From a virus (lineage: Duplodnaviria; Heunggongvirae; Uroviricota; Caudoviricetes): a stretch of DNA of 64,000 nt. A program made the position numbers and the translations under genes. The stretch lies in IMG/VR virus record IMGVR_UViG_3300017705_000602; one strand, written 5' to 3'. Within the stretch, counting starts at the first letter, position 1, and each line of letters opens with the position of its first letter. This document shows positions 7,823 to 57,767 of this stretch, piece after piece. Under the pieces are notes generated by a model. That model ran no database searches. It was not told the origin of the DNA and worked only from the letters and a program-made list of their open reading frames with translations.

Positions 7823-8038
7823 ATGGATATCGAAGAGAAAACATTACTCAAGCTGTTTGAAATGAGGCACGGAGTATTAGCAAACAATTTTCACACTGAT
7901 ATCGAATATAACGACCCGACCATGATGGACCGTGCAGTAGGCGTAAATGTTTACAAAAACGGTGATTTTGTTTGGTCAGAGTCGGCAGTCAGTTTGTTGC
8001 TTTGGCACACTGGTAAACAATTAGGTATAAAAGAATGA
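7823..8038 (+). CDS. small hypothetical protein
   Basis: start moved to first ATG after tRNA-Phe; stop overlaps downstream start. Confidence 0.4.
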   Translation: MDIEEKTLLKLFEMRHGVLANNFHTDIEYNDPTMMDRAVGVNVYKNGDFVWSESAVSLLLWHTGKQLGIKE

Positions 8039-8481
8039 AACTGAGTTATAAAGATTGCGGCGTTATCGGATTTACTTGTAGTACATTTGATTTATTGCAT
8101 GCAGGTCATGTAGCAATGTTAGAAGAAGCAAAACGACAATGCGACTTCTTGATCGTAGGATTACAAAATGATCCGACTTTAGACAGACCAGTGCAAAAGA
8201 ATCCTCCTGTCCAAAGCTTAGTTGAACGCCAGATACAGTTAAGCGCAGTCAAGTTTGTTGACGATCTAGTGGTCTATAACACCGAAAAGGATCTTGAAGA
8301 TCTGTTGCTAACATTGCCAATTGCGGTTAGAATACTAGGTGTCGAATACGAGGACAAAGAATTCACTGGTAGAAAAATATGCCAGGACAAAGGAATCAAG
8401 TTGTTCTTTAACACACGAGATCACAGCTTTAGTAGCACCAGTTTAAGACAACGTGTAGCAGACTCGCAAAACGCAAAATAA
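8035..8481 (+). CDS. cytidylyltransferase-fold nucleotidyltransferase, RfaE/HldE domain II-like (heptose-1-phosphate adenylyltransferase family)
   Basis: HIGH motif FTCSTFDLLHAGHV; downstream LIVGLQNDPTLDRPVQKNPPVQSLVERQ mirrors HldE-II LIVAVNSD...RPVNPLEQR. Confidence 0.7.
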   Translation: MKLSYKDCGVIGFTCSTFDLLHAGHVAMLEEAKRQCDFLIVGLQNDPTLDRPVQKNPPVQSLVERQIQLSAVKFVDDLVVYNTEKDLEDLLLTLPIAVRILGVEYEDKEFTGRKICQDKGIKLFFNTRDHSFSSTSLRQRVADSQNAK

Positions 8482-9917: not shown

Positions 9918-10008
9918 GGTGAGTTGGCAGAGTTGGTCTATTGCGCTTGACTGCTAATCAAGAGTCCTGTAACCGGGGCACGTGGGTTCGAATCCCACAC
10001 TCACCGCC
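9918..10008 (+). tRNA. tRNA-Ser (anticodon GCT), class II
   Basis: acceptor ggtgagt/actcacc, anticodon stem cttga/tcaag, loop ctGCTaa, long variable arm, T-loop ttcgaat, CCA. Confidence 0.8.
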
Positions 10009-10026
10009 AAACACAAGGATTACAAC

Positions 10027-11160
10027 GTGTCAAAACGAATAGTAGTAAAAGTTGGCTCTACATTGTTAGCAAACGAAGAAACACTTAGAATGCGATTTGC
10101 ATTTATGTGGGGTTTGCTACGTGATATAGCCGATCTACAAAATCAAGGTTACGATGTAGTACTAATGAGTTCTGGTGCAGTTGCACTAGGTAGAGAAATA
10201 CTCAAAACAGATGACAACAGTATTGCAACCAAACAAGCCGCATCGGCTTGTGGGCAACCAGTATTACTGCATGCTTACAGATCGATTGCACAAGAAATGA
10301 GCAAAGATATTGCTCAAGTGTTGGTTACCATGAGCGAAATGGAATCGCAAGATCATTTTGATGATATCAGCAACACAATTGAACGTTTGTTTGATTATCC
10401 TGTTATTCCTATTGTTAACGAAAACGATACCACAGCAACAAAAGATTTGCGCGTTGGCGACAATGACAGGCTAGCGGCAAAAGTTGCCGAAATGATTGGT
10501 GCAGAACACTTGGTTATACTTACCAGTATTGACGGTTTATACGATCGAAATCCAAGTGATCCAGACGCACAGTTTATCGATGTGCTTGATGATGTTAGTC
10601 AGTATATTGACGGCACAGAAGAAACAAACGGCCTGGGCAGCGGTGGCATGAAAACTAAATTGCAAGCCGCAAACATGGCACAGCAATGCAATTGTACCAC
10701 ACATATTGCCGAAGGCATCATAGATGCACCGGTGTCAAGTGTTATTAATAATACACGAGTGCATACTAAATGTTTGCCGATTGACCAGACAGCATCCAGG
10801 CAAGAACTTTGGTTAAGTAACCGATTGCGAGTAGCATGTTCGATTATTGTTCCGAAACAAGTTGCACAATCTCTTGCAGACACAAAGCAAAATATCGTGT
10901 ATAATGATATTGCTTCACGCTTTGGCGCATTCAGCAGAGATGATATTTTACATGTGTTTAGCGAAGATGGTGTTGAATTAGCACGTGGGTATGCAGAATG
11001 TTCAAGTGATGATCTTGAACACTTGCAACACATGCGCAACCAGTTTGATTCAGAATACGGTGCAGACGCATTGATAATCAAACAAGACCGCATGATGCTA
11101 GTGGAGTCCAGTCAGTTAAGCTGGGACGCACCGGACATTGAAACAACACAATCTGTTTAA
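10027..11160 (+). CDS. glutamate 5-kinase (ProB)-like amino-acid-kinase-family protein with C-terminal PUA domain
   Basis: VVKVGSTLL, VLMSSGAVALGRE, PIVNENDTTATKDLRVGDNDRLAA, GSGGMKTKLQAAN match ProB blocks; C-terminal region matches the ProB PUA domain. GTG start at 10027 chosen (AAGGA 8 nt upstream) because the track start at 9982 lies inside tRNA-Ser. Confidence 0.75.
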   Translation: MSKRIVVKVGSTLLANEETLRMRFAFMWGLLRDIADLQNQGYDVVLMSSGAVALGREILKTDDNSIATKQAASACGQPVLLHAYRSIAQEMSKDIAQVLVTMSEMESQDHFDDISNTIERLFDYPVIPIVNENDTTATKDLRVGDNDRLAAKVAEMIGAEHLVILTSIDGLYDRNPSDPDAQFIDVLDDVSQYIDGTEETNGLGSGGMKTKLQAANMAQQCNCTTHIAEGIIDAPVSSVINNTRVHTKCLPIDQTASRQELWLSNRLRVACSIIVPKQVAQSLADTKQNIVYNDIASRFGAFSRDDILHVFSEDGVELARGYAECSSDDLEHLQHMRNQFDSEYGADALIIKQDRMMLVESSQLSWDAPDIETTQSV

Positions 11161-13177: not shown

Positions 13178-13774
13178 CTAGGCCCTTTTTATAATTATTG
13201 CTTGACGACCCATGAACACATTAAGATGTTCATTGTGAATCATGCAAAAGCGGTTTACTGCTTTATAAACACCGGGCCAGTTTTCTTCACTGTAATCATC
13301 GAAATATAAAACTCCTCCTTTCTTTATTTTAGGATACCATTGGTTTATATTTGATTTAGTTTGATCGTAAGTGTGTCCTGCATCGATGTAGATAAAGTCA
13401 ACACTTTCGTCTTCGAACGTCATTTCTTCAACTGCAAGCGGAAGCACAGCTTTTACAAGATGCAGATTTTTTACATCTTGTAAATTTTCTCGTACAGTTT
13501 CCACGCAGTATATTTGATCCGTATCGGCATTATGTAAAAGTGAGTCTTGTTGAAAACTAGCAAGCGTTCTTGGATTACACGGATCACCGAACCAATCGTA
13601 ACAGTACAGATGAACAGAATCTTTTTTATTCATGCCAAGTGCATACGCACTTCTGCCTGCAAACGTACCGAGTTCTACTATGGTGCCATTTTCGGGCACT
13701 TGCTTTGCATATTTTGCTAAGTTTACGAGTGAGCAAGTATTTCCCCAACCGCATATATTTTCATTTATGATCAT
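13178..13774 (-). CDS. class I SAM-dependent methyltransferase (Methyltransf_24 / TylF-MycF-like O-methyltransferase family)
   Basis: minus-strand ORF; SAM-binding motif I IVELGTFAGRSA and motif FIYIDAGHTY...KGGVLYFDDY typical of TylF-type sugar O-methyltransferases. Confidence 0.65.
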   Translation of the reverse strand: MIINENICGWGNTCSLVNLAKYAKQVPENGTIVELGTFAGRSAYALGMNKKDSVHLYCYDWFGDPCNPRTLASFQQDSLLHNADTDQIYCVETVRENLQDVKNLHLVKAVLPLAVEEMTFEDESVDFIYIDAGHTYDQTKSNINQWYPKIKKGGVLYFDDYSEENWPGVYKAVNRFCMIHNEHLNVFMGRQAIIIKRA

Positions 13775-14919: not shown

Positions 14920-15654
14920 ATGAAATTTAAAAACATTTTGTTGGGCACAGTAATAGCACTTGGCTTTTCGTCAGTTGCTAATGCGGGCCTAATAACAACA
15001 ATAGATGACTTTTCCGATGACCAAGGTCCGCTAACTGTTATGGCAGGCGGTATGGACTGGAGCTCAGTACTCGGTGACATGATTGGCGGCGAACGTGATT
15101 TAATGATCACAAACATTGTCGATGATAATAACAGAGGGACAACTATCGAAATTACAAACGATAAGTTCTTCTTTAGTGCCGGTTCGGGTGCCGAGTCAAT
15201 GTTTACTATGCAATGGGACGGCATTGATAACTCAATGGACGTTAACACAACTGGGCTAGGCGGAATCAACTTTTTTGAATCTGGCAACTCGGTAGTTTCG
15301 TTTGTTACTGCAATCGTTGAGTCCGACTTAAATGCTTGGTTCGACATCACGTTTTGGTCTGGTGCTAACGGCACTGCTGAAACAGTAGAACTACCAATTC
15401 CAGGTGTTGCATTCCCAGGTCGCGATGCGTTCTTTACCACTAACGAATTTGCAAATACCGATTTTACAAATATCGGCGCAATACAAGTTCGCGGTAACAT
15501 TATATCTCCTGACACTGGGTTAATGGTTCGGTCGTACGACTTGCAACTAGATTCAGTAACAGCAGTACCAGAGCCAGCAATGGCAAGTTTGCTTGGTTTA
15601 GGTCTTGCAGGAATTGCATTAGCAGGTCGCAGAAGAAAAAAACTAGTAGGATAA
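14920..15654 (+). CDS. secreted protein with C-terminal PEP-CTERM sorting signal
   Basis: signal peptide MKFKNILLGTVIALGFSSVANA; C-terminus VPEPAMASLLGLGLAGIALAGRRRKK = VPEP + hydrophobic helix + Arg/Lys cluster; AAGGA RBS. Confidence 0.7.
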   Translation: MKFKNILLGTVIALGFSSVANAGLITTIDDFSDDQGPLTVMAGGMDWSSVLGDMIGGERDLMITNIVDDNNRGTTIEITNDKFFFSAGSGAESMFTMQWDGIDNSMDVNTTGLGGINFFESGNSVVSFVTAIVESDLNAWFDITFWSGANGTAETVELPIPGVAFPGRDAFFTTNEFANTDFTNIGAIQVRGNIISPDTGLMVRSYDLQLDSVTAVPEPAMASLLGLGLAGIALAGRRRKKLVG

Positions 15655-18451: not shown

Positions 18452-18808
18452 ATGCGTCTGTGGCGTTGGGGGTATGATCAGTTTAGAACTGGTTATAGAA
18501 TATTCACAATTGCTTATATAAAGGCGCTTAGATGGGATATATATTTGTTTCATTATCCCGAAGGGTCGTTTATACCTAAGCATAAAGATCCTTCAAAGTA
18601 CGGCAAGCATTACCGTTTTAATATAACTCTTAAACGACCTGAACAGGGCGGCGAGTTTATTTGCAACAATGTAGTGTTTAGATGGTGGAGATTTTGTTTG
18701 TTTAGAGCAGATGCAAATTACCACCGCGTAACTCGAATTGAAAAAGGTAGCCGTTGGATACTAAGCTTCGGTTTTACATTTAAGCATGACAAAAGTTCAA
18801 ATCGGTAA
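18452..18808 (+). CDS. small 2OG-Fe(II) oxygenase-like protein (paralog of 4609..4941)
   Basis: FIPKHKDPSKYGKHYRFNITLK HxD...H pattern shared with the 4609 paralog. Confidence 0.5.
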   Translation: MRLWRWGYDQFRTGYRIFTIAYIKALRWDIYLFHYPEGSFIPKHKDPSKYGKHYRFNITLKRPEQGGEFICNNVVFRWWRFCLFRADANYHRVTRIEKGSRWILSFGFTFKHDKSSNR

Positions 18809-19415
18809 TAACAGCATGGAACTTCCGGAAGGCCCAATTGGGCTTTCCTTTTCTACCGGTCTCGATAGTACAATTTTGTTGTACTTGCTTGCACAGCAAG
18901 TAAAGTCGGATTTACATTTGTTTACTATAAGTGTTCATTCTCGAGACCTACATGCAATCAAGTATTCGGCAGATATACTCAATTGGGTAATTGCACAAAC
19001 AGGTAAAACAAACATTTATCTGCATGTGACTGTAAAGCAAGATGCCGACGATGCATTAGGCAATGCAGGATTATACAAGACACCGGCTGAATATTTAGCA
19101 AGAGGCTTAATCAACTGCGTAGTAACTGGACATAACAGTTTACCGCCCGATGAAATCGATCTAGGATGGCCTGCAAAAGATTCGCACGATTACAAAATTC
19201 GAACTCCGCACGAACAGCGCGATATCGAATTTGCAACAAATTGGTTCAGTCCATTGACAAACTGCAACAAGAAACAGATTGCAGAACTTTTTTTAGAAAA
19301 TGGTGCATTAGCACTTGCGAAAAAGACTAATAGCTGTTATACTTCGTATAACGAAGAGCCATGTAAGCAGTGCTTTGCTTGTAAAGAAAAATTCTGGGGC
19401 TTTGGGTTTTACTAA
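18786..19415 (+). CDS. QueC-like PP-loop ATP pyrophosphatase, paralog 1 (degenerate PP-loop)
   Basis: N-terminal LSFSTGLDSTILLY (variant of SGGxDS) and C-terminal Zn-ribbon CYTSYNEEPCKQCFACKEKFWGFGF matching QueC TCY..GCGxCxxCxxRxxGF. Confidence 0.6.
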   Translation: MTKVQIGNNSMELPEGPIGLSFSTGLDSTILLYLLAQQVKSDLHLFTISVHSRDLHAIKYSADILNWVIAQTGKTNIYLHVTVKQDADDALGNAGLYKTPAEYLARGLINCVVTGHNSLPPDEIDLGWPAKDSHDYKIRTPHEQRDIEFATNWFSPLTNCNKKQIAELFLENGALALAKKTNSCYTSYNEEPCKQCFACKEKFWGFGFY

Positions 19416-19677: not shown

Positions 19678-19808
19678 GCGGGCGTAGCTCAGTTGGATTA
19701 GAGCAACGGTTGTTTAAATGTCCCCTGTGCCGACACCGGTCTTCTAAACCGGAAGCATAAAAAACGTTGGGTTGGAGCTGGGAGGTTCGACTCCTCCAGG
19801 GGATGCCA
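19678..19808 (+). other. composite tRNA-like region upstream of HNH gene
   Basis: 19678-19710 = normal tRNA 5' part (acceptor gcgggcg, ta, D-arm gctc agttggatta gagc). Further on: perfect hairpin ccggt-ctTCTaa-accgg, perfect T-arm ggagg ttcgact cctcc, then aggggat-g-CCA (matches gtcccct at 19718). No canonical cloverleaf. Confidence 0.35.
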
Positions 19809-19864
19809 TTTTTAAAATCTGTGATAAATACTTTTACTTTAATGTTAGAAGTAGAAGAATTATC

Positions 19865-20563
19865 ATGGATTATAAGAAATTATACTATTCGATTATTGAA
19901 AAGCGACAAAGGTGTACACCTACTGGATATACTGAAAAACATCATATTGTCCCAAGGTCGTTAGGTGGTACTAATGACAAAGAAAATTTAGTTAAGTTAA
20001 CTGCTAGAGAGCATTTTCTTTGTCATTACTTGCTTGCAAAAATGTATAGCAAAGAATCAGTTGAATGGTATAAAATGAATCATGCATTTTTAATGATGAA
20101 GTCATCGTCGGCAACACAACAACGGTACTTTAATTCGAAACTGTATGAAAGCTTAAAAGTGAATATGTCGTTTGTGATGTCAGAATCACAAACGGGCAAC
20201 AGGAACTCTCAGTACGGAAAGCGATGGATACACTCTGTGGAGTTACAGAAATCTGTTAAAATTCCTAAGGATGATCCTTTACCTGACAACTGGAAAGAAG
20301 GCAGAAGAGTTAACTGGGATCTTGTTAAAACATGCCCACAATGCGGTACAGAGTTTTTAAAGAGTTTAAAGAAGTACTGTTCGGATGATTGCAAGGATAA
20401 GGCAACTAATCCTTTCCGTGGTAAAGAACAAGAGTTTTTAGAATTGTATGCGGAGTACCAGAGCATGAACAAAGCCTTAAAGGCAATGGGATACCCTGGT
20501 GCAATTAGTCATTATTACCGTTGGGCGAAATCGGTTATAGGTAATAACAATTCAAATGTTTGA
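19865..20563 (+). CDS. HNH homing endonuclease (paralog of 6967..7644)
   Basis: HHIVPRSLGGTNDKENLVKL..REHFLCH motif; C-terminal CPQCGT..C..C zinc finger. Confidence 0.8.
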   Translation: MDYKKLYYSIIEKRQRCTPTGYTEKHHIVPRSLGGTNDKENLVKLTAREHFLCHYLLAKMYSKESVEWYKMNHAFLMMKSSSATQQRYFNSKLYESLKVNMSFVMSESQTGNRNSQYGKRWIHSVELQKSVKIPKDDPLPDNWKEGRRVNWDLVKTCPQCGTEFLKSLKKYCSDDCKDKATNPFRGKEQEFLELYAEYQSMNKALKAMGYPGAISHYYRWAKSVIGNNNSNV

Positions 20564-22342: not shown

Positions 22343-23172
22343 AAACGATACCTGCAGACGAGCCGGTGCTGGTAGACGATATTGCAGTTATGACATACAA
22401 CGAATCTCGTGTTATGTCGCAGTATTGGCGTGCCGGTGAATCGTTATGGAAAGGTGTTATGCCATGTAACAGTTTCCAGCTTTTGCACGAAAACAGTATA
22501 CGCCAAACAGTATTCGGGTACTTTGTTAATCAGTGTTTTCGATGCTCAGTAGATGAAATTGCAGATGACGATATCACAGTTAACAATTATTGGCTTGAAA
22601 TACTACCTAAGATTTTGTGGTTATGCGAAGAATGGTTAACCAAAAAACAATTTGTTGAACCCCTTATGGCGCACTGGAATCCCCGAATACAAAAGAATGT
22701 GGTACATCCTGGAATGTCACGTGCAAGTGTGATGCATCTGTTTCCGCAAGGACTTACTGAATTCTCAGTGGTGTATTTTAATACCGGCGGTGGATACGAT
22801 CGCAACACAATGAACAAGCTGAGAAAAATTACAATAGACGATTTAATCGACGATGGCTGGAACACAATGACATTTGTCGCCGACCACGAATCTCTTATTC
22901 CGCATTTTTCAAAAAATATTGAAGCAAATGCAAACTACAAAAAAGATTACCATCGTAAGATAATCGAACGGCTATCGTCAATGTCGATAGAAACAAATAC
23001 TAAAGACACTATATTTACAGATCCGCTGTCAGCTTGGATTAAAAGAAACGGTAACGTACAAATTATTTTCACCGATCAAGAACCGGGTCCGTTAGCACAA
23101 GCAAGGGCATTGTTGTGTGCATTGTTAGGAAAAACGTACACAGACCATGAAGTAAAAGTATCATGCAATTAG
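22327..23172 (+). CDS. hypothetical protein
   Basis: 281-aa from ATG 22327 (AAGGACG RBS); immediately upstream of and overlapping the radical SAM gene. Confidence 0.5.
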   Translation: MEPEMKTIPADEPVLVDDIAVMTYNESRVMSQYWRAGESLWKGVMPCNSFQLLHENSIRQTVFGYFVNQCFRCSVDEIADDDITVNNYWLEILPKILWLCEEWLTKKQFVEPLMAHWNPRIQKNVVHPGMSRASVMHLFPQGLTEFSVVYFNTGGGYDRNTMNKLRKITIDDLIDDGWNTMTFVADHESLIPHFSKNIEANANYKKDYHRKIIERLSSMSIETNTKDTIFTDPLSAWIKRNGNVQIIFTDQEPGPLAQARALLCALLGKTYTDHEVKVSCN

Positions 23173-24128
23173 AGCGAGCAGTAATCGAAATTGCAGGAGG
23201 TTGCAATTACACCTGCGGAATGTGTCCTCAGAGCACAGGACGTGGCAAAGACTTTACCAAAAAGATGTCGGTATCTCATTTTGCTCAACTGCTCGACGAG
23301 ATTGTGGACAAGTATGGCAGCCCTCAGATTAATTTAGAAGGCTCAGGTGAGCCCACTATCAATCGAGATTTACCTTTGTATATACGAGAATGCACAAAGC
23401 GCAATCTTAAAAGTTTCATGTATACAAATGGTGCAAGGTTTAAAGGTAAACTGATGACCGATTCCATTGACGCCGGATTGTCTTTTGTTAGATTCAGTTG
23501 CATTGGCTACAATCGTGAGACTTATAAAAAATGGATGAGTCGTAACAACTTCGATTTGCTGATAAAAAATGCTATTGCTACACAGCAATACATACAGCAG
23601 ACTGAATCAAACTGCACAGTGAGCAGTTATCACCTAATACTAGACAACGCTAACATCGAGTACGAGATCGAGCAGTATCGGCGTAACTTTATTGAGCAAG
23701 TCGAATCAGTTGCGTATATCTGGAAAATGCACAACTGGAGCGGAAACATACAGCCAATATATCTGAGAGATACTTCCGATCGCAGAACATGCGGACGTCC
23801 ATTTGCACCCGAAATAACCATACGAGCCGGTGGCCTAGATGGTAAATACGGAGCAGTAACACCTTGTTGTCAAACTATGGGTCCACCGCACGAAGCCGAA
23901 AGCGTGCTAGGGCATACTTCTGTAAACACAATTGAAGAAATATTTACAGGAGAAAAATATGAGCAATTACGAAAAGCTCATAGACAACAAGACTTTGATA
24001 GTGTATCATATTGCAAAGATTGTGATTTCTTGTATGAAGACCCTGAGGTTCTAGTATGGAGTAACGATACTAGTGCAACAACAAATCACATGCTTGGAAC
24101 AAATTTTAATTTAGAAGATTACAAATAA
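23163..24128 (+). CDS. radical SAM enzyme with C-terminal SPASM/twitch-like Cys cluster
   Basis: N-terminal CNYTCGMC (Cx3Cx2C) in GGCNYTCGMCPQS; C-terminal Cys-rich region TCGRP...TPCCQTMG...SYCKDCDF. Confidence 0.7.
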   Translation: MQLERAVIEIAGGCNYTCGMCPQSTGRGKDFTKKMSVSHFAQLLDEIVDKYGSPQINLEGSGEPTINRDLPLYIRECTKRNLKSFMYTNGARFKGKLMTDSIDAGLSFVRFSCIGYNRETYKKWMSRNNFDLLIKNAIATQQYIQQTESNCTVSSYHLILDNANIEYEIEQYRRNFIEQVESVAYIWKMHNWSGNIQPIYLRDTSDRRTCGRPFAPEITIRAGGLDGKYGAVTPCCQTMGPPHEAESVLGHTSVNTIEEIFTGEKYEQLRKAHRQQDFDSVSYCKDCDFLYEDPEVLVWSNDTSATTNHMLGTNFNLEDYK

Positions 24129-24328: not shown

Positions 24329-24994
24329 ATGCGAATTGAACTGCTCGGAAATGATTATATTGACATACCCAACGATACCAGTGTAGGTGTCGGATTTAGC
24401 GGTGGTGTTGATTCTACTTTGTTATTGTACATAATGTTGCTATACTCGCCGCATACTGTATTTCCGCTTACTATAACAGTTAACAATCGTTATCATCGCC
24501 ATAAGCAAGTGGCATCGGAAGTTCTTGAACTGTGCTGTAATGAAACAGGCAACCACGAAGTTATACATTCGGCAATACATTGCAACGATATTGATTTAGA
24601 AAATGGCACTAACCCTACTGCATTAAAACAAAACTGGTTTTTAAAGTCTGGCATGATCAGCACTTTGTTTCTTGGTACTAACCAGTTACCACCAGCTGGT
24701 CATATACACACTGAAGACTTTCGACACAATCACACTGACGAGTACTATCGGCGAGAACCCGGTGTGTTAAAAGCTACTAGTACCCACGGTGGTGCATTTC
24801 AGTTGCCACTCATTAATTATGACAAACGACAAATCTGCGAGCTGTACAGAAAGTTTGGTATATCAGATGAAATATACAAGCGCACATGGTCTTGCTCGAC
24901 TATACTCAGTGACAAGGATTGGAATGTAAATAGACATTGTGGGAAATGCGGCCCTTGTCACGAACGTATTTTTGGGTTTGGAAAAATAGAATAG
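24329..24994 (+). CDS. QueC-like 7-cyano-7-deazaguanine synthase family PP-loop ATPase, paralog 2
   Basis: canonical PP-loop VGFSGGVDSTLLLY; C-terminus WSCSTILSD..HCGKCGPCHERIFGFG matches QueC zinc motif. Confidence 0.7.
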   Translation: MRIELLGNDYIDIPNDTSVGVGFSGGVDSTLLLYIMLLYSPHTVFPLTITVNNRYHRHKQVASEVLELCCNETGNHEVIHSAIHCNDIDLENGTNPTALKQNWFLKSGMISTLFLGTNQLPPAGHIHTEDFRHNHTDEYYRREPGVLKATSTHGGAFQLPLINYDKRQICELYRKFGISDEIYKRTWSCSTILSDKDWNVNRHCGKCGPCHERIFGFGKIE

Positions 24995-27466: not shown

Positions 27467-27634
27467 ATGAAAACCAAACGATACAAATGTATTATATGCG
27501 AATATATCTACGACGAATCAATCGGTATACCCGATGAGGGCATTCCGCCCGGCACAAGATTTGAAGATATTCCTGATGATTGGTCATGCCCGCTGTGCGG
27601 AATTGATAAAACTTACTTCGAGGAAATAACATGA
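27467..27634 (+). CDS. rubredoxin (55 aa)
   Basis: CxxC...CPxCG pairs in [40 protein letters not shown] with conserved Tyr/Asp/Trp aromatic core; ATGA-coupled to DHFR. Confidence 0.75.
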
Positions 27635-28143
27635 TCACGCTTATAGCCGCTATAGGTACCAATGGCGAAATCGGTAAAGATAACAGTTTACTTTGGGACA
27701 TACCCGAAGAAATGAAAGTGTTTATCAAGCACACTAAAGGTAAAACTGTGTTAATGGGCCGCAAGACATTCGAATCAATTGGTAGTAAGCCTTTGCCAAA
27801 TCGAACAAACATTGTGATTTCAAGAACTATGCCCGAAACCAACGGTGTACATGTTTATAGCAATATTGCAGATGCAATTAAAGATCACCCGGATGTAGTG
27901 GTCATGGGCGGAGAACAAATATACCGCGAGTGCTTACCGATAGCCGATCAAATGATCATATCGCATGTGTGCATGAGCTTTCCTGATGCCGATTCTCATT
28001 TTCCTGTATGTAATCAGTTGCTTGAAAAATCAGGTGAATTGTTGCACGATGGATCACCTTTTTTCTCAACGTATAAATATACGAAAGGAAAAGGAGAAAA
28101 CTCATGGGATTCAGATTCAGCAGACGAAGCGAAGAAAGACTAG
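27631..28143 (+). CDS. frd: dihydrofolate reductase
   Basis: [51 protein letters not shown] matches DHFR N-terminal blocks. Confidence 0.85.
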
Positions 28144-28502
28144 AAGGTGTTCACCCCGATCTAGTTGATGTTGCACATCGCGCAATCGAACTAACACCGT
28201 ATGACTTTGGTATTACCCAAGGCGTAAGAACAATAGAAGAACAAAGACGTTTTGTCGAAGAAGGCAAGTCTACTACAATGAACAGCAGGCACCTGATACA
28301 AGACGACGGATACAGCCATGCAATTGATATTGCAGTATATGTAGACGGTTCGATAACGTGGGAAGTGCCTTACTACAGAAAAGTTGTACAAGCATTTTTT
28401 ACTGCCGCTATTGAAAAGAATGTACAAATCAATTCGGGTGTGCTGTGGCGTACATTTGTCGACGGTCCGCACATTGAACTAAACTACAGGTACTATGAAT
28501 AA
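28104..28502 (+). CDS. peptidase M15-family L-alanyl-D-glutamate peptidase-type endolysin
   Basis: NSRHLIQDDGYSHAIDIAV (SxHxxGxAxD) and DGPHIEL second His motif. Confidence 0.65.
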   Translation: MGFRFSRRSEERLEGVHPDLVDVAHRAIELTPYDFGITQGVRTIEEQRRFVEEGKSTTMNSRHLIQDDGYSHAIDIAVYVDGSITWEVPYYRKVVQAFFTAAIEKNVQINSGVLWRTFVDGPHIELNYRYYE

Positions 28503-29103
28503 TATATACACCTGTAAGCTATTCGAGCCGCACGAAGCACAACGACTGTTAGACGATATTACATCGGAGTTTTACGGCAAATTTGTAAGATCAAGACTGT
28601 ACGACACATCTTCAGGCAACATGCATTTTAAAGAGATTGCCGATGCCCGAAGATCGTGGGAGCAAGTGTATCATAACCATACTCGGTTTGCTTGGATAAA
28701 AGCTAGACTAAACAATCATGTAAGAACTGCGCTTGATCAGTTCGGTCTTACTATGCCTGCTATACACTATCCGCAAGGTCTTCGATTTTTAAAATACGAC
28801 TCGGCAGAAACGGGCTTTCAGAATTGGCACACGGACAAGTCTAAACAATCGCGTATTCTTACTTGTGTTGTACAATTAACAGACCCTGACGAATATCAAG
28901 GTGCAAGACTCGAATTTCAATCTCCGATACTGTCGAGGCAGGTGCCAGTTCAGCAAGGCAGTTTAATTATATTTCCATCGGAGCAGATTCATCGTGTGTC
29001 TGAATGCATATCGGGAATTAGATACTCGTTGATTGTTTGGGCCGAGACAGAAGATACAGCATTACCTCCAGGGTACACAGATGACACTACTGAAAAGAAC
29101 TGA
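28495..29103 (+). CDS. 2OG-Fe(II) oxygenase, prolyl-4-hydroxylase-like
   Basis: HxD in FQNWHTDKS, distal His IHRVSE and 2OG-binding RYSL. Confidence 0.65.
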   Translation: MNNIYTCKLFEPHEAQRLLDDITSEFYGKFVRSRLYDTSSGNMHFKEIADARRSWEQVYHNHTRFAWIKARLNNHVRTALDQFGLTMPAIHYPQGLRFLKYDSAETGFQNWHTDKSKQSRILTCVVQLTDPDEYQGARLEFQSPILSRQVPVQQGSLIIFPSEQIHRVSECISGIRYSLIVWAETEDTALPPGYTDDTTEKN

Positions 29104-29611
29104 TTGGGAATTTCTAGCACCGCTTGCATTAAAAGAAGCAATGTCTATTATCAACAAGCACGGTGCGTTTAACGGGCAGATTGGACTTACACATCGTCCT
29201 GGAACACCCGAAGGCGATAAACTGATTGATGCAACAGGCTCGTTGTATGATTACGACTCGGGTCAGTTTGTTGCAAAGGAATCAGACTTTACTGAATTCA
29301 ATAGTGCTTTTGTAGGTACTTACTTGCACGAAATTTACAGCACTATCGGAAACATCGGTCGTATGAGAATCATGATCATGGATGGCCCTACTGCATACAC
29401 CATTCATCGCGATGTGACTACTCGTTACCACTTAGCTCTCAAAACCAATCCGTTTTGTTTTTTTGTGTTCCCTAACCAAAACGAACAAATACACATTCCG
29501 CAGGACAATAACATATACGAAGTTGACACACGAGAATATCACACGTTCTTGAATGGCACTAGAGCAACACGTATTCATTTAGTAATGGATAATTTGTTGT
29601 CGTATGAGTAA
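29081..29611 (+). CDS. cupin-type aspartyl/asparaginyl beta-hydroxylase-like protein
   Basis: TAYTIHRDVTTRYHLALKTNP resembles the AspH-family His-x-Asp...His core; start uncertain (29033 or 29081). Confidence 0.45.
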   Translation: MTLLKRTDWEFLAPLALKEAMSIINKHGAFNGQIGLTHRPGTPEGDKLIDATGSLYDYDSGQFVAKESDFTEFNSAFVGTYLHEIYSTIGNIGRMRIMIMDGPTAYTIHRDVTTRYHLALKTNPFCFFVFPNQNEQIHIPQDNNIYEVDTREYHTFLNGTRATRIHLVMDNLLSYE

Positions 29612-36764: not shown

Positions 36765-36820
36765 TAAAGCTGTTATCTGTGCTACAATAACATGTGATCA
36801 ACTATTATAAGGCGCACACT

Positions 36821-37834
36821 ATGTACCGTATCGGCTTTGCATGCAAATTTACGCATCACGACCAGAGTTTAAAAAAGAAGAAACTCGAAGAAATCGAACG
36901 TCCGTATCGTCCTCGCATAACCACAGCACGCTGGCTCGATCAGCAAGATCAGCATGTGGCTGAACAGCGACTTAAAGATTTGATTACTCACAACGTCGAA
37001 GCAACTGCGCGACTGGTTGCATGGGTCGGTCAGTACGAACGCGAGCTTCGTATGTTGCGTATTGGTAGCGACTTATTGCCCATGTACACACATCCAAAGT
37101 GGAAGAATTTCTACACCGACAACCCATCTTTTATGGCCGGCATACAAGAACAGTTTAGACGCATCGGCATTGTTGCTCGCGAAAAAGATGTGCGCCTTTC
37201 GTTTCATCCGGGTCAGTTTACTGTGCTTGCTAGCGACAGACCAGAAGTTGTTGAGAACTCAATTGAAGAATTCGAGTACCATGCAGACATGCTACGCTGG
37301 ATGGGGTACGGTCGTACATTCCAAGATGCCAAGTGCAACGTACACATCAGCGGCAAGCTAGGTCCACAAGGCATTATCGATATACTGCCGCGTCTCAGCG
37401 AAGTTGCTCGCAATGTGATCACAATCGAGAATGACGAAATGTCATACGGTCTTGATGCATCGCTTGAGCTAGCTGATCATCTAGCTCTTGTCATAGATTG
37501 CCATCATCACTGGGTACGCACAGGCGAATACTTACAGCCCGACGACGAGCGTGTTAAGGCAGTTATTGCGTCATGGCGCGGCAAGCGACCGACTATGCAC
37601 TATTCATTATCACGCGAGGACTTGCTGGTCGATCATTGCCGTGATACTAAACCCGACATGGATAAATTACTCGAGCAAGGTTACAAAAAACAAAAGTTGC
37701 GTGCTCACTCCGACTACATGTGGAATCGAGAATGCAACAAGTGGGCAGCCGGCTTCTTAGGTAACTTCGATATCATGGTCGAGTCCAAGGCTAAGAATTT
37801 GGCATCGTTTAAGTTGTACAACGAGATTAAATGA
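36821..37834 (+). CDS. UV DNA damage endonuclease (UvdE/UVDE family)
   Basis: MYRIGFACKF, RMLRIGSDLLP, ITIENDE, IDCHHH match UVDE conserved blocks. Confidence 0.75.
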   Translation: MYRIGFACKFTHHDQSLKKKKLEEIERPYRPRITTARWLDQQDQHVAEQRLKDLITHNVEATARLVAWVGQYERELRMLRIGSDLLPMYTHPKWKNFYTDNPSFMAGIQEQFRRIGIVAREKDVRLSFHPGQFTVLASDRPEVVENSIEEFEYHADMLRWMGYGRTFQDAKCNVHISGKLGPQGIIDILPRLSEVARNVITIENDEMSYGLDASLELADHLALVIDCHHHWVRTGEYLQPDDERVKAVIASWRGKRPTMHYSLSREDLLVDHCRDTKPDMDKLLEQGYKKQKLRAHSDYMWNRECNKWAAGFLGNFDIMVESKAKNLASFKLYNEIK

Positions 37835-38688
37835 TTACAGAAAAACACTTTTGGGTCTCCGACTTTAACCGTGCGTCGAATTATGCAAAGCAATATCCTG
37901 ACATTAGCAAGATATTCGATTACCCAAGCGCAACATGGTTAACCGGTAGATCCAAATACAAAAAAATTATCGATAGATCTATTAAGCGTACTTTACGTAG
38001 AGCCGCTCCTTATTTGCCTACGTTTGTGCTTTATGCAATACCAAATAGAGATCTGGGGCATCATTCTGCAGGCGGTCTTGCATCTGACGAAGAATACTTT
38101 CAGTTTGTTAAACGTATTGCACAAGGCATCGGGAATAAAAGTCCTGTGGTGATCGTTGAACCGGATGCATTACCACATTCAACATTGCTTGACAACAAGC
38201 AACAAAAGCACAGAATTTCGCTTATTAAAAAAGCTGTAAAAATTCTAGCTAACAATTGTGATGCAATTGTTTACATTGACATTGGTCATTCCAATTGGTT
38301 ATCACCATCGGATTCGTACGACTTGTTAATGCAAGCAGGAATTGCACAAGCAAGAGGATTTTCAGTTAACGTGTCCAATTATCAATCAACGCACGATTCG
38401 TTGTTGTGGGGCACCAGAATTGCAAGCGGGTTCGAAGACGAAAAATACTTTATTGTTGACACCAGCCGAAACGGACAAGGTCCGCTTGACGACTGCTGGT
38501 GCAATCCGCCAGGCAGAGGCTTAGGTGAAACACCAACGCATGAAACACCTAGTCGCTTTTGTGATGCGTACATGTGGATTAAAGTTCCGGGTGAGTCAGA
38601 CGGCAAATGCAACGGTGGACCTCATGCAGGGAAATTTTGGCCTGAGCAAGCAGTTGAACTTGTGCAGAACTCTCCGTTTATTCGATAA
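37831..38688 (+). CDS. glycoside hydrolase family 6-like protein (cellulase/cellobiohydrolase fold), no signal peptide
   Basis: GH6 blocks VLYAIPNRDLGHHSAGG, VIVEPDAL, IDIGHSNWL, NVSNY, VDTSRNG, CDAYMWIKVPGESDG; ATGA-coupled to uvdE. Confidence 0.7.
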   Translation: MITEKHFWVSDFNRASNYAKQYPDISKIFDYPSATWLTGRSKYKKIIDRSIKRTLRRAAPYLPTFVLYAIPNRDLGHHSAGGLASDEEYFQFVKRIAQGIGNKSPVVIVEPDALPHSTLLDNKQQKHRISLIKKAVKILANNCDAIVYIDIGHSNWLSPSDSYDLLMQAGIAQARGFSVNVSNYQSTHDSLLWGTRIASGFEDEKYFIVDTSRNGQGPLDDCWCNPPGRGLGETPTHETPSRFCDAYMWIKVPGESDGKCNGGPHAGKFWPEQAVELVQNSPFIR

Positions 38689-39920: not shown

Positions 39921-40304
39921 ATGTCAGGATTATTTTCTGTACCTATCGACTTGCGCGTTAGCATGTCAAATATCGAAACCTTGCAAATATTAACCGACAT
40001 GTACTTTAAAGGTGTGCTTGAAGGAAAAGCAACAATTGCAATCACTGCTAGTGGTGCATGTCTGTTGTTTACTGACCCTAAAGACGTCACTTATGTCGAG
40101 CTCGATAATGCTATAATTAATGAATATTGTCAGTCTGTAACTGCATTGCAACGCCAGCTATCCGCTGTAAGTTTTACATCGCAAGACCACACTCATACAT
40201 TAAACGGTTATTTTCACAACGGCACCAGCATTGCAACAAACTCGATAAGCAATGCCACTATAGCACCAGGTTCTTGGTCAAACAATTCGTCGGGTACTGC
40301 TTAG
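39921..40304 (+). CDS. hypothetical protein
   Basis: 127-aa ORF, AAGGAATGAATTATG context. Confidence 0.5.
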   Translation: MSGLFSVPIDLRVSMSNIETLQILTDMYFKGVLEGKATIAITASGACLLFTDPKDVTYVELDNAIINEYCQSVTALQRQLSAVSFTSQDHTHTLNGYFHNGTSIATNSISNATIAPGSWSNNSSGTA

Positions 40305-40313
40305 GAGCATAAC

Positions 40314-41036
40314 ATGCAAGTCGGCGATACTAGGTCGTTGATTTTTGACCTTGACGGTACTTTGTGCGAAAGCACAAAATGTTTGCTCCCCGAAATGCAA
40401 CACATGCTAAAGTTGTTATCTCAGGATTATGATATCTGGGTAACAACCGGAACATCGCATCAAAAGCTGTTAACGCAAATTCCAGCTGATGTATTGTCCT
40501 GTTTAACTGGTGTGTATTGCAGTTTAGGAACCGAGTACTACAACAACGGACAGCTGGTGTCAAGATTGGATGCTGAGTTTTCACAAAGTCTCCTACTTGA
40601 ACTCCAAGCTGTGTTTGAAGCATGCGAGTTTGCACACAAACACGAGTGCGCAATAACGTATAGGAATGCCATGATAAACTTCTCGGTGTTAACTCCGGGT
40701 TCATCGGACACATTGAGAAAACAGTTTGCAACGTGGGACCACGAAACCAACTTTAGGAATCGTATTGTGATGCATTTAAAAAACATGTATCCGCAGTACA
40801 ACTTTGCGGCAGGCGGCATGGTCAGCATTGATATTACACAGACCGGAGTTGACAAATCTGTTATTGTTGATAACGAAAAGTTAAAAACGGACGTGATATT
40901 CTTTGGTGATAAAGCCGAACCGTTGGGTAATGATTATCCGGTTGCTCAAGCAATAGTTGAGCGCAAGATAGGCAAGTACTACTGTGTTGAATCTCCTGAG
41001 CATACATTAAGTTTACTCAAAAAAATACGCGCCTAG
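40314..41036 (+). CDS. eukaryotic-type phosphomannomutase (HAD superfamily, PMM family)
   Basis: DxDGT motif LIFDLDGTL; YRNAMINFSVLTPGSS, VSIDITQTGVDKS and IFFGDKAEPLGNDYP align with PMM blocks FRNGMLNVSPIGRS / ISFDVFPEGWDK / IHFFGNETSPGGNDF. Confidence 0.75.
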   Translation: MQVGDTRSLIFDLDGTLCESTKCLLPEMQHMLKLLSQDYDIWVTTGTSHQKLLTQIPADVLSCLTGVYCSLGTEYYNNGQLVSRLDAEFSQSLLLELQAVFEACEFAHKHECAITYRNAMINFSVLTPGSSDTLRKQFATWDHETNFRNRIVMHLKNMYPQYNFAAGGMVSIDITQTGVDKSVIVDNEKLKTDVIFFGDKAEPLGNDYPVAQAIVERKIGKYYCVESPEHTLSLLKKIRA

Positions 41037-41047
41037 TGCGCGTATTT
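41027..41047. terminator. bidirectional terminator between convergent genes
   Basis: palindrome tacgcgc-ctagt-gcgcgta flanked by A- and T-runs. Confidence 0.55.
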
Positions 41048-41071
41048 TTGTTTGTGCAAAACCTAAAAGGT

Positions 41072-41701
41072 TTAAGCGTTTGCGTCTTCTGGAGACTCAA
41101 TTGTAACAGTTGGTGCAGTAGTGTAACCTGTACCGCCTGTGTCAACAGTGATTGCAGTTACGGCACCGCCACTAACTGTAGCAGTAGCAGTTGCACCGGT
41201 TCCGTTGCCATCAATAGTAACAGTTGGTACGCCAATATAACCTTCACCAGCCACATCTACTGTGATTGCATCGACTGCGCCAGTATCAATTGTGGCTGTA
41301 GCGGTAGCAGTTACAAACGATACGTTAGCATCGTCGATTACATCGGCTTGCCCGGCTTCACTAGCCGCGTCAGCACTCCATGAATACGATGAATACTCTG
41401 TTGCAGAATCAAACACTGAAACTCGATACTGAGTAAGCTTGTAAACAGGTTGTGCAGAACCATTGAATGGTGTTGCTAGTATAAATGCTTCACCTTCTGC
41501 TAGGTCTCCCGCAGTATCTTTGTTTACTAAGAAAACATCGCCGATTGTGCCGTTAATGTTTACTTTGTATTTGCGAGTACCTGTTTGTTCAGTTATAAAG
41601 CCTTCGGCCACTGCTTCGCCAGGTAATTTTGCTGTAATTTTTAATTGTGAACCTACGCTAAGTGGATCCCCGAAAAACTTTTGCTTGATCGGTCTTCCCA
41701 T
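41072..41701 (-). CDS. repeat-containing putative structural protein (minus strand)
   Basis: 209 aa; tandem repeats G-A-V-x-A-I-T-V-D...G-Y-x-x-x-P-T-V-T-I; Gly/Thr/Ala/Val-rich. Confidence 0.55.
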
Positions 41702-46008: not shown

Positions 46009-46797
46009 ATGAAAGTAGGAATCATAGGACACGGATATGTTGGCAAATCAATCAGTTTGCTATATTGCATACACGAACAAATCATAGTAGACGTCGATAC
46101 AGCGCACACAGTTAACGACATTGACACTTGTGATGTAGTGTTTGTCTGCTTACCCACTCCCACTAAAAACAGCGTGTGCGACTATACAGTGCTTTTAAAC
46201 GAGGTATCTAAGCTGGTACATCTAGATGTACCTGTTGTTATCAAGTCAACTGTTACACCTGACTTCTTTGAACATGAGTCAGTAAAGCAAATAAAGCACC
46301 TGGTGTACTATCCAGAGTTTTTGCGCGAAGCACATTACGAATACGATGCACAGAATCCAACATACATGATACTTGCAGGCAGCAAACAAGATTGTCTTGC
46401 CATGAAGCACATAATCAGCACGGCAGTTTTGCATACAGTGCCGGTGTGTTATCAAACAGAAAGTTACCGAGCCGCATCATTGGCAAAATATGCTATTAAT
46501 TCGTTTCTTGCAACTAAAGTAGTGTTCATGAATGAACTAGAAAGTCTAGCAGGAGCAGATTTTGAACAAGTTGCGCACATGATGTCACTGGACTGTAGAA
46601 TCGGAAACACTCACTTGGATGTGCCAGGCCCAGATGGCCAGTATGGGTTCGGTGGTTCGTGTTTTCCAAAAGACACAAAAGCGTTGACATCATACGCCGA
46701 AGAAAGTAACATAGCGTTATCAGTACTAAAACAGGCATGCGAAACAAATGACAGCTATCGGCACAAAAATCGAATTCGACCTAACCACAAAAACTGA
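46009..46797 (+). CDS. UDP-glucose/GDP-mannose 6-dehydrogenase-family protein lacking the C-terminal UDP-binding domain
   Basis: GxGxxG in MKVGIIGHGYVG; catalytic-Cys block FGGSCFPKDTKAL; 262 aa covers NAD-binding and central domains only. Confidence 0.65.
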   Translation: MKVGIIGHGYVGKSISLLYCIHEQIIVDVDTAHTVNDIDTCDVVFVCLPTPTKNSVCDYTVLLNEVSKLVHLDVPVVIKSTVTPDFFEHESVKQIKHLVYYPEFLREAHYEYDAQNPTYMILAGSKQDCLAMKHIISTAVLHTVPVCYQTESYRAASLAKYAINSFLATKVVFMNELESLAGADFEQVAHMMSLDCRIGNTHLDVPGPDGQYGFGGSCFPKDTKALTSYAEESNIALSVLKQACETNDSYRHKNRIRPNHKN

Positions 46798-47269
46798 TCT
46801 CGAACGACTGCGTCGTCTCCAAGAAGATCATCGATGCACTAAATCTGACTCCGTTGAATATATGTGTCAGCAACTTGAAATTGATAATCTTGTTAAAACT
46901 TTGGATATTGATAATCGACGGTCCCGAAACTTACAGGCGTTTAATGCAGAGCTGTACAGTCACGGAGTAAGACAGTGGGCCTATCGTAAAAGCTTTATGG
47001 TTTCGATGCCAGCAGTACACAAGAAACGCGAAAAAGAATTCGGCATATATGTTCCGATGTGGGCAGTGTCTAGTCATTTCAGAATGCCATGTGCATGCGG
47101 AAACACTGACCAGCGTCAACTTGGGTGTAATATCGAATTATTTTTTCCGCCGGCACACGAAGGCAAAGTGATCGAAATCAATCATGAAAATGGCGCATAC
47201 AGTGCATATCTGTTTCATGAAGCACCATTTACGCCATCGAGCAACATGAAATACTGGTTATCAAAATGA
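46748..47269 (+). CDS. hypothetical protein
   Basis: 173-aa ORF overlapping upstream gene by 50 nt; no UDPGDH C-domain motifs. Confidence 0.45.
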   Translation: MTAIGTKIEFDLTTKTDLERLRRLQEDHRCTKSDSVEYMCQQLEIDNLVKTLDIDNRRSRNLQAFNAELYSHGVRQWAYRKSFMVSMPAVHKKREKEFGIYVPMWAVSSHFRMPCACGNTDQRQLGCNIELFFPPAHEGKVIEINHENGAYSAYLFHEAPFTPSSNMKYWLSK

Positions 47270-56863: not shown

Positions 56864-57339
56864 TGGCAAGCAGACAAACAATTAAAAACTCCCAGCTCGG
56901 GAGATTCAGTACTCAAATACTTGAACAAAAAGGCGCAGAAAGAACTGTTCGGAATGTTAACGGTGCTCGTGCCAATGTATACTCAGGTGCAACAGGCGGC
57001 GAAACATTCTTATCACCTGACGCAATACGACTTGCTTTTACTAACACTACAGGCGGCAGCGTTAACGACGACTTGTTTAATGTAGTGTTCTGTTACTTTG
57101 AGAAAATAAGTAAGTCGAAACAAACTGCGTCAACGCTTGCGGTTATTTTAATCGATGCCGCCAAAATACAAGGCGTCTCACCTCTTAATTTAATACAAGC
57201 AGCCAATCAAGGTAAAGTTAATTTAGTAGAATCAATCTATCCTTATATAAACTTACTTCGCGGTGCAGGCGATCAACACGAAAGAGTTCGTAGCATTAAC
57301 AACAATGCAAGTCCTAAAAGCAGAGGTGTTCAACCTTGA
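56863..57339 (+). CDS. hypothetical protein
   Basis: 158-aa ORF, ATGG overlap. Confidence 0.5.
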   Translation: MASRQTIKNSQLGRFSTQILEQKGAERTVRNVNGARANVYSGATGGETFLSPDAIRLAFTNTTGGSVNDDLFNVVFCYFEKISKSKQTASTLAVILIDAAKIQGVSPLNLIQAANQGKVNLVESIYPYINLLRGAGDQHERVRSINNNASPKSRGVQP

Positions 57340-57767
57340 GCAATTTTCATCAGAACTATTATAAAGTAAAAAACCCGGACAAGTATTCGGGTAAAACTGC
57401 ACCTTACTATAGATCGTCTTGGGAACTAGCAGTCTGCAGAATGTGCGATAATCACCCTAACATTTTAGAATGGTCTTCGGAATCTATAAAAATTCCGTAT
57501 AAGCATCCGCTCAAAGGGACAATGACTGTGTATGTACCCGACTTTGTTGTGTTATTCGAAGACAAAGATGGTAATCGTAGACTTGAAGTATGGGAAATAA
57601 AACCATCATCGCAAACATTTGTAGAACAAGCCAAGAAAGAAAAGGATAAATTAGCATTAGCAGTAAATGCGGCAAAGTGGCAAGCGGCACAACAATGGTG
57701 CTCAAGGCGCGGTGCAGTATTTAAAGTAATTAATGAAGATAGTATCTTTTCAAAGAAAAGGAAATAA
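57336..57767 (+). CDS. PD-(D/E)xK nuclease-like protein
   Basis: VYVPDFVVLFEDKDGNRRLEVWEIK gives PD...E.K catalytic triad spacing. Confidence 0.4.
   Translation: MSNFHQNYYKVKNPDKYSGKTAPYYRSSWELAVCRMCDNHPNILEWSSESIKIPYKHPLKGTMTVYVPDFVVLFEDKDGNRRLEVWEIKPSSQTFVEQAKKEKDKLALAVNAAKWQAAQQWCSRRGAVFKVINEDSIFSKKRK

Follow-up and report, generated by a model that had tools for sequence, protein, structure and literature searches.

A phosphomannomutase-family gene in a marine T4-like jumbo-phage lineage and its probable partners in sugar-nucleotide synthesis

What would a phage do with an enzyme that prepares a sugar phosphate for activation? The question is raised by IMG/VR virus record IMGVR_UViG_3300017705_000602 (Caudoviricetes), of which a stretch of 64,000 nucleotides, hereafter the window, was analysed. 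A plus-strand gene at 40314..41036 had been described in a first-pass annotation as a eukaryotic-type phosphomannomutase (PMM) of the HAD-IIB type that would supply mannose-1-phosphate for a GDP-mannose-type donor. The present study places its product, as a divergent new member, in the known enzyme family PF03332, and the function favoured here, with moderate confidence, is that of a Mg2+-dependent phospho-aspartyl transferase, likely a mutase converting mannose-6-phosphate to mannose-1-phosphate, the product of which would pass to a nucleotidyltransferase and then to a dehydrogenase of this phage.

The gene and its family

The gene and its expression signals are as follows.

40314..41036, plus strand: PMM-family gene, an ATG-to-TAG open reading frame (ORF) of 240 amino acids; predicted hexose-phosphate mutase
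40303..40307, plus strand: Shine-Dalgarno AGGAG, 6 nt 5' of the ATG, read from the sequence
41021..41049, no strand assigned: terminator-like hairpin, stem ATACGCGC/GCGCGTAT between an A-run and a T-run, spanning the stop codon of the PMM-like gene

The AGGAG overlaps the stop codon of a preceding 127-aa ORF, and a terminator scan gave a match at 41028-41040 plus a T tail at the 3' end of the PMM-like gene, where the hairpin faces a convergent minus-strand gene (41072..41701). The latter, which has no other minus-strand gene near it, is clade-conserved; its product of 209 aa contains repeated 'GxGY...PTVTI' segments and gave no match in Pfam.

An identical PMM-like protein is also encoded on other contigs of up to 319.6 kb, and orthologues of 47-53% identity were found on contigs of 324-335 kb, one of which is labelled as a Rickettsiales metagenome-assembled genome (MAG). 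Across the contigs of this clade the synteny is kept, running from Band7 through UvdE, GH6, small ORFs, the PMM-like gene, the minus-strand 209-aa gene, rIIA and rIIB to a short dehydrogenase. The PMM-like gene is thus maintained in a lineage of marine T4-like jumbo phages with genomes of ~320-335 kb. With its Shine-Dalgarno sequence, terminator hairpin and clade-wide synteny, 40314..41036 is a real gene. The window represents 64 kb of a ~320 kb genome, and the absences reported below hold for these 64 kb alone.

The family assignment was supported by profile, sequence and structure searches. The PF03332 (PMM) profile scored 75.4 bits (gathering cutoff 22.4; E 7.3e-21), with residues 28-238 aligned to profile positions 1-218 of 221; the likeness to PMM noted in the first-pass annotation is therefore upheld, whereas the three separate blocks it described are replaced by a match spanning the full length. 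A phmmer search of the PDB recovered 15 PMM sequences (E 1.9e-19 to 5.4e-14) from Trypanosoma brucei, human (PMM2, PMM1), mouse, T. cruzi, Aspergillus, Candida, Leishmania and Plasmodium, together with the Lactococcus lactis alpha-phosphoglucomutase (alpha-PGM; E 1.6e-13), and the next best match stood at E 0.079. A generic Cof-type phosphatase was not the best match in any of these searches: NCBIfam gave generic HAD-IIB models alone, all under cutoff (Cof TIGR00099, 29.7 vs 137; TIGR01484, 29.9 vs 41.8), and the PF08282 match was confined to residues 9-116. In PHROGs, the protein matched phrog_29277 ('unknown function') at E 4e-34.

An AlphaFold2 model built on a 67-sequence alignment reached a pLDDT of 95.6 and a pTM of 0.90. 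Foldseek searches of the PDB with this model returned PMM or alpha-PGM for all of the top 24 chains (E 5e-22 to 4e-18, TM-scores up to 0.82), followed by inosine monophosphate (IMP) nucleotidase at ~1e-12 and then, from rank 33, by T6PP/Cof-like structures at ~1e-10. The E-value gap below the PMM/alpha-PGM group thus amounts to ~1e6 to IMP nucleotidase and ~1e10 to generic HAD-IIB phosphatases, and the core plus C2B alpha/beta cap architecture is closest to that of solved PMMs. Among the viral models of BFVD no close PMM-like model was found, the best match being a generic HAD protein at 2e-9. Together, these results confirm the PMM-family identity of 40314..41036 far beyond chance.

Compared with eukaryotic PMM2, PMM1 and Sec53 (2amy, 7o0c, 2fuc, 3f9r), the window protein has the same length and the same HAD core and C2B cap, and shares motif I, the motif III Lys, motif IV and the equivalents of R123, N128, R141, S179 and D181; it differs in its low identity (26-28%) and in the replacement of R21, S47 and R134 by T21, T47 and P128. 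Unlike those enzymes it is viral, shows no phylogenetic affinity to eukaryotes and has no ManC-type partner that could be found in the window. The atypical alpha-PGM of L. lactis (4bnd) is a prokaryotic member of the PF03332 family, illustrating that the fold is used beyond eukaryotes and beyond mannose; it is a poorer match to the window protein than the PMMs (53.7 vs 73 bits), is glucose-specific by its description and has a genomic context unlike that of the window gene. The bacterial ManB/AlgC alpha-D-phosphohexomutases have an unrelated four-domain fold with a phosphoserine nucleophile and catalyse the same predicted net reaction (hexose-6-phosphate to hexose-1-phosphate) via a bisphosphate intermediate. 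Their Pfam PGM_PMM domains were not detected in the window protein.

Active-site residues

In PMM2, one phosphate is bound by K189 and the second by R134 and R141, and R21 and R141 serve as clasps (PMC4263888). Residues were therefore mapped with human PMM2 as reference, over eight members of the jumbo-phage clade and 82 other viral or bacterial homologues. Motif I (DxDGT) is present as F11-D12-L13-D14-G15-T16, and the individual positions, given as PMM2 residue and window residue, are as follows.

D12 and D14; window D12 and D14: conserved
R123; window R117: conserved here, Tyr in two of the eight clade members
N128; window N122: conserved
R141; window R135: conserved
S179; window S171: conserved
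D181; window D173: conserved
K189; window K181: conserved, the motif III Lys
D209; window D199: conserved, motif IV
N216 and D217; window N206 and D207: conserved, motif IV (GDK...GND)
R21; window T21: lost, T or K in the clade, with the adjacent K22 clade-invariant
S47 (motif II); window T47: Ala in six of the eight clade members
R134; window P128: lost, the position being variable in the clade (R, K, E, N, A or P)

The catalytic-core residues, which are invariant in more than 90 homologues, are all present in the window protein. R21, S47, R123, R134 and R141 are ~90-100% conserved in the 82 homologues outside the clade, including every copy that lies beside a nucleotidyltransferase or cupin gene. 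Judged by these residues, the phosphoryl-transfer machinery is intact and the distal-phosphate pocket has been remodelled in the jumbo-phage clade, for which reason mutase activity can here be predicted rather than read directly from the family. T45, which occupies the place of the Cof-type 'TG' motif, may substitute for the motif II residue. The lost arginines weaken the case for a canonical PMM active site, not that for family membership.

Such a pocket raises the alternative of a sugar-phosphate or sugar-bisphosphate phosphatase, in which the same Asp12 phospho-enzyme would release its phosphate to water, as PMM1 does with glucose-1,6-bisphosphate. The disappearance of the R21 and R134 equivalents, and often of the motif II Ser, from an otherwise retained catalytic core is in keeping with this chemistry, as is the uncoupling of the PMM-like gene from its usual partners in this genome, and PMC5736207 describes the hydrolysis of bisphosphate hexoses by PMM1. 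However, the cap residue R135 (equivalent to R141) and R117, N122, S171 and D173 are still present, the clade-invariant K22 next to the lost R21 could compensate for it, the structural neighbours of known activity are all mutases, and generic phosphatase models remain far under their cutoffs. A phosphatase is accordingly regarded as unlikely, and mutase chemistry as the probable one.

Ancestry and distribution

An exhaustive HMMER scan of 1.84 billion representatives yielded 1,294 clusters at E <=1e-3, and the best 150 of these (clustered at 50% identity) all scored at least 81 bits, compared with 55-73 bits for eukaryotic PMMs. The nearest relatives of the window protein are uncultured viral and bacterial proteins. 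A rough Kimura-distance neighbour-joining tree of 80 taxa with 60 bootstraps included two eukaryotic sequences, namely human PMM2, its sequence checked against a PDB alignment, and a T. brucei fragment taken from a PDB alignment. In this tree the jumbo-phage clade was recovered in 60/60 bootstraps, with the metagenomic sequence P0009 as its sister in 59/60, and phage and eukaryotes were never grouped (0/60). The phylogeny proposed in the first-pass annotation to separate eukaryotic from bacterial origin thus gave no sign of eukaryotic affinity, and with at least 150 clusters outscoring the eukaryotic enzymes, 'eukaryotic-type' is not borne out as a statement of ancestry; 'eukaryotic' is a family name only.

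In the same rough tree, human and T. brucei PMM fell beside 251-aa viral proteins of pelagimyophage type (L013, L044, L064), and human PMM2 shares 40% identity with L013 and L044, the median for the remaining homologues being 31%.

In IMG/VR, relatives were confirmed in at least 258 of the first 600 candidate stretches. PMM-like genes were also found in the cyanomyophages S-SSM7, S-SSM6a and P-TIM68, in Acinetobacter phages, on pelagimyophage-like contigs with PrkA/SpoVR, and in bacterial and archaeal MAGs. The phrog_29277 proteins (S-SSM7, P-TIM68, pelagimyophage-like contigs and Acinetobacter phage Ab1-TPeters) belong to the same family at 26-38% identity to the window protein and are all annotated as hypothetical or of unknown function; unlike the jumbo-phage clade, they retain all the PMM substrate-binding arginines, and their module genes, described below, are contiguous, compared with dispersed in the window phage. 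Some metagenomic copies are labelled 'phosphomannomutase' by JGI. A literature search of incomplete coverage retrieved no description of PF03332 genes in phages, nor of the module. Viral PMM-like relatives are therefore already catalogued, though unannotated, and it is their context that adds value.

Conserved gene module in other viral and bacterial loci

Loci retrieved by PMM homology were examined for recurrent neighbours, 88 of them by tblastn with three nucleotidyltransferases and 96 by neighbour clustering. In 31/88 loci a nucleotidyltransferase match was located at most 6 kb from the PMM-like gene (29/80 viral loci and 2/8 genome loci), counts in which several loci are near-duplicates and many have incomplete flanks. 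The PF01467 nucleotidyltransferase gene and the PMM-like gene usually share a strand and adjoin or overlap each other, in either order, and the same pairing occurs in an alphaproteobacterial MAG (L017). In Ab1-TPeters, a 157-aa PF01467 gene annotated as an HldE adenylyltransferase domain directly precedes the PMM-like gene. The association is clear in metagenomic loci, not among isolate phages generally.

Two further components recur. Cupins of ~114 aa lie beside the PMM-like gene in 17/96 loci, and half of the eight neighbouring cupins that were checked are PF01050 mannose-6-phosphate isomerase domains (172, 116, 103 and 30 bits), the 172-bit match belonging to a bifunctional, full-length ManC (471 aa) whose gene immediately precedes the PMM-like gene in a Thermodesulfobacteriota MAG; the remaining ones are Cupin_2 proteins with weak similarity to archaeal glucose-6-phosphate isomerase. 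A short dehydrogenase of the UDP-glucose/GDP-mannose family (250-305 aa, N-terminal and central domains only) was present in 14/96 loci. The gene order is cupin, nucleotidyltransferase, PMM, dehydrogenase in L086 and L087; PMM, nucleotidyltransferase, dehydrogenase in L034, L041, L061, L062, L067 and L068; and cupin, nucleotidyltransferase, PMM in Ab1-TPeters. The association of the family with these partners is conserved. A PDB sequence search with the neighbour clusters c129 and c17 gave no match. The S-SSM7 'NAD synthetase', considered as a hidden nucleotidyltransferase, is actually a SegE GIY-YIG endonuclease.

In bacteria, the PMM-like gene occurs in polysaccharide-type clusters, with ManC (PMI-GMP) directly upstream of it at locus L019, and with a nucleotidyltransferase, the PMM-like gene, a GT2 glycosyltransferase and a GDP-mannose 4,6-dehydratase in the Alphaproteobacteria MAG L020. 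Moreover, five viral loci (L056, L071, L083, L088 and L089) carry one to three tandem glycosyltransferases immediately downstream of the PMM-like gene or of the PMM-nucleotidyltransferase pair, the homologues of which in Aeh1, Kuja and PTm1 are annotated as beta-glucosyl-HMC-alpha-glucosyltransferase. These five loci are a hint that, in some viruses, DNA glycosylation draws on the product of the module. A Pfam census of the neighbours contained one TAGT (PF20691) cluster, whose sameness with the tandem glycosyltransferase cluster could not be confirmed.

Partner genes in the window

Three of the four module components are encoded by the window phage, co-directional and dispersed at 8.0, 40.3 and 46.0 kb. 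The two partners of the PMM-like gene are as follows.

8035..8481, plus strand: nucleotidyltransferase of the cytidylyltransferase fold (HldE-domain-II/TagD-like), 148 aa, PF01467 at 41.6 bits; probable partner
46009..46797, plus strand: short nucleotide-sugar 6-dehydrogenase-like gene, 262 aa, PF00984 at 76.5 bits and PF03721 at 46.5 bits; probable downstream enzyme

The nucleotidyltransferase is 68% identical (E 2e-73) to the one directly 5' of the Ab1-TPeters PMM-like gene. Ab1-TPeters is an unrelated phage, and identity to genes of Vibrio phages of ~191 kb reaches 64%, a degree of conservation that is unusual between phages so distant; the annotations of its relatives are split between 'TagD' and 'HldE'. 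The dehydrogenase comprises N-terminal and central domains only, lacking the C-terminal nucleotide-sugar-binding domain, and retains the GxGxxG and GGSCFPKD Cys motifs; TIGR03026 matched at 137.8 bits, under its cutoff, and the best specific NCBIfam matches were UDP-glucose 6-dehydrogenases. It is 37% identical to the dehydrogenase that directly follows the PMM-nucleotidyltransferase pair in viral loci, and it lies 5 kb downstream of the PMM-like gene throughout the clade. A 173-aa ORF without a Pfam match (46748..47269, plus strand) overlaps the end of the dehydrogenase gene and is clade-conserved.

The link to other sugar-nucleotide enzymes of the window that had been suggested from the sequence is thus backed by family synteny with these partners, two of which are encoded here, and is qualified by their dispersal, the genes not forming an operon. 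The proposed GDP-mannose-type donor finds less support: GDP-mannose is not established as the product because the nucleotidyltransferase is of the cytidylyltransferase fold and not of the ManC/RmlA fold, and no ManC was found in the window.

The nucleotidyltransferase also suggests a different sugar. In NDP-heptose synthesis, the PMM-like enzyme would convert heptose-7-phosphate to its 1-phosphate (D-glycero-D-manno) or dephosphorylate heptose-1,7-bisphosphate in place of GmhB. The best NCBIfam match of the 8035..8481 product is indeed the heptose-1-phosphate adenylyltransferase domain (rfaE_dom_II, 79.8 bits, followed by TagD at 45 bits), and heptose-7-phosphate is manno-configured; that score, however, is far under the family cutoff of 181.5, neither an SIS isomerase nor a PfkB kinase appeared among the best 25 of 86 neighbour families, and the C6-dehydrogenase, the mannose-6-phosphate isomerase-type cupins and the GDP-mannose dehydratase fit a hexose. 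Moreover, PMM-family enzymes yield alpha-1-phosphates and HldE takes the beta anomer, which also counts against a heptose. A commentary on Tang et al. 2024 (PMC11461863) describes viral heptose nucleotidyltransferases as functional and the phosphatase as absent in viruses, which would leave a place for such an enzyme. On balance, a role in NDP-heptose synthesis is considered very improbable.

The arabinosyl-5-hydroxycytosine pathway was considered as well; it employs an SIS isomerase, a MurU-like nucleotidyltransferase/kinase and a GmhB-like HAD phosphatase (PMC13326640), and it was ruled out since its HAD and nucleotidyltransferase families differ from PF03332 and PF01467.

Proposed function

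The neighbour contexts in other loci (mannose-6-phosphate isomerase cupins, ManC and GDP-mannose dehydratase) suggest that a hexose, and specifically mannose, is activated. Sequence alone does not fix the sugar, because the family includes the glucose-specific 4bnd and bifunctional PMM/PGM enzymes, such as the T. brucei PMM, which also acts as a PGM (PMC3465800). An alpha-PGM, converting glucose-6-phosphate to glucose-1-phosphate and feeding NDP-glucose or NDP-glucuronate, would be consistent with this dual activity, with the membership of 4bnd in the family (E 1.6e-13 by sequence and 1.8e-18 by fold), with the weak resemblance of some cupins to archaeal-type glucose-6-phosphate isomerase (L010, PF06560, 25.4 bits) and with the UDP-glucose 6-dehydrogenases that best match the dehydrogenase. 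Nevertheless, PMMs outscore alpha-PGM by both sequence and fold, and the informative neighbours elsewhere are PF01050 cupins, ManC and GDP-mannose dehydratase, making this role rather unlikely, a little more so than the phosphatase.

For the favoured mannose-6-phosphate mutase, a mechanism can be proposed by analogy with PMM1 and PMM2. Asp12 would be phosphorylated by hexose-1,6-bisphosphate and would in turn phosphorylate the 6-phosphate substrate at its C1-OH; the resulting bisphosphate intermediate may turn within the closed cleft between core and cap, gripped by K181 of the core and R135/S171 of the cap, before its C6 phosphate returns to Asp12. D14 is the putative acid/base, and D199 and D207 would hold Mg2+. 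In the corresponding pathway, fructose-6-phosphate would be converted to mannose-6-phosphate by a cupin mannose-6-phosphate isomerase or a host enzyme, mannose-1-phosphate to NDP-mannose by the PF01467 nucleotidyltransferase (8035..8481), and NDP-mannose to NDP-mannuronate by the short dehydrogenase (46009..46797), with glycosylation of the cell surface, the virion or DNA as candidate end uses. The three enzymes would then be functionally coupled in this phage.

Several observations weigh against this reading, beginning with the sugar ambiguity of the family noted above. The T21 and P128 substitutions leave the distal-phosphate set (the cap R134/R141 pair and R21) incomplete, and T47 stands in place of the motif II Ser. 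From the PMM-like gene to its two partners the distances are 32 kb and 5 kb, and the three form no operon. ManC-type PF00483 gave no match in the ~69 window ORFs of at least 120 aa; a mannose-1-phosphate guanylyltransferase may be supplied by the host. Hidden Markov models of two cupin subtypes and a motif regular expression detected no significant cupin isomerase in the window, and no recognisable glycosyltransferase was found there. Finally, among isolate phages, both the nucleotidyltransferase and the PMM-like gene occur in Ab1-TPeters only. A tblastn search of the window for a TAGT-like glycosyltransferase gave no match, and the preceding 127-aa ORF was rejected as a divergent cupin (non-significant cupin match, E = 1.1).

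A broader and more tentative proposal is that the PMM-like enzyme, the cytidylyltransferase-fold nucleotidyltransferase and the truncated C6-dehydrogenase (plus a cupin elsewhere) might constitute a widespread, undescribed viral route from fructose-6-phosphate to a non-canonical ADP- or CDP-linked mannose or mannuronate, which would bypass a ManC/GalU-type pyrophosphorylase and serve DNA or virion glycosylation. The jumbo-phage clade would then carry a re-specialised version with a remodelled phosphate site. This wider scheme is possible, though more doubtful than the mutase function itself.

Genome context and other genes of the window

The window genes include rIIA/rIIB-like genes, a T4-type large terminase, a tail sheath, a gp1-like deoxynucleoside monophosphate kinase and a DHFR. 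The terminase is closest to that of the PA5oct-like Pseudomonas jumbo myoviruses (64% amino-acid identity), and no copy of the PMM-like gene was found in the PA5oct-like isolates. A megablast search with the region at 38-46 kb of the window against the INPHARED phages revealed no nucleotide-level relatives.

Upstream of the PMM-like gene, a cellulase-type GH6 glycoside hydrolase (37831..38688, plus strand; PF01341, 194.5 bits) directly follows a UvdE UV-endonuclease gene (36794..37834), and both are conserved on related jumbo-phage contigs; the GH6 product might act as a depolymerase on cellulose or biofilm of the host. A full-length ProB-like glutamate 5-kinase with AA_kinase and PUA domains (9982..11160, plus strand; TIGR01027, 284 bits vs a cutoff of 186) represents an unusual auxiliary metabolic gene for a phage. 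In addition, a 244-aa protein (14920..15654, plus strand) bears a C-terminal PEP-CTERM sorting motif (PF07589, 24.5 bits), suggesting a host with an exosortase system.

A radical-SAM/SPASM enzyme lies between two QueC-like PP-loop paralogues (18786..19415, 23163..24128 and 24329..24994, plus strand), with an HNH endonuclease at 19772..20563 in the same region, and the group could be a base- or cofactor-modification cluster. Two adjacent oxygenases of the 2-oxoglutarate-Fe(II)/Asp-Arg-hydroxylase type (28495..29611, plus strand) stand beside DHFR (27631..28143), and a TylF-like methyltransferase is encoded at 13178..13774 on the minus strand. Furthermore, a protein with a TnsA-like endonuclease domain (57336..57767, plus strand; PF08722, 72 bits), located within the structural and packaging genes upstream of the terminase, may belong to a mobile or homing element.

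Significance

The present study ties a common, unannotated viral gene to a compact sugar-activation module of mannose-6-phosphate isomerase, nucleotidyltransferase and dehydrogenase, the first of which is as abundant as psbA in marine viromes (PMC9602691). The PMM-like gene is a plausible substrate supplier for the 'TagD'/'HldE' cytidylyltransferases of marine myophages, providing a testable hypothesis for the product of these auxiliary genes. If a new nucleotide sugar for DNA or virion glycosylation is indeed made, this would be relevant both to the anti-restriction strategies of phages and to the rerouting of carbon in marine bacteria during infection.

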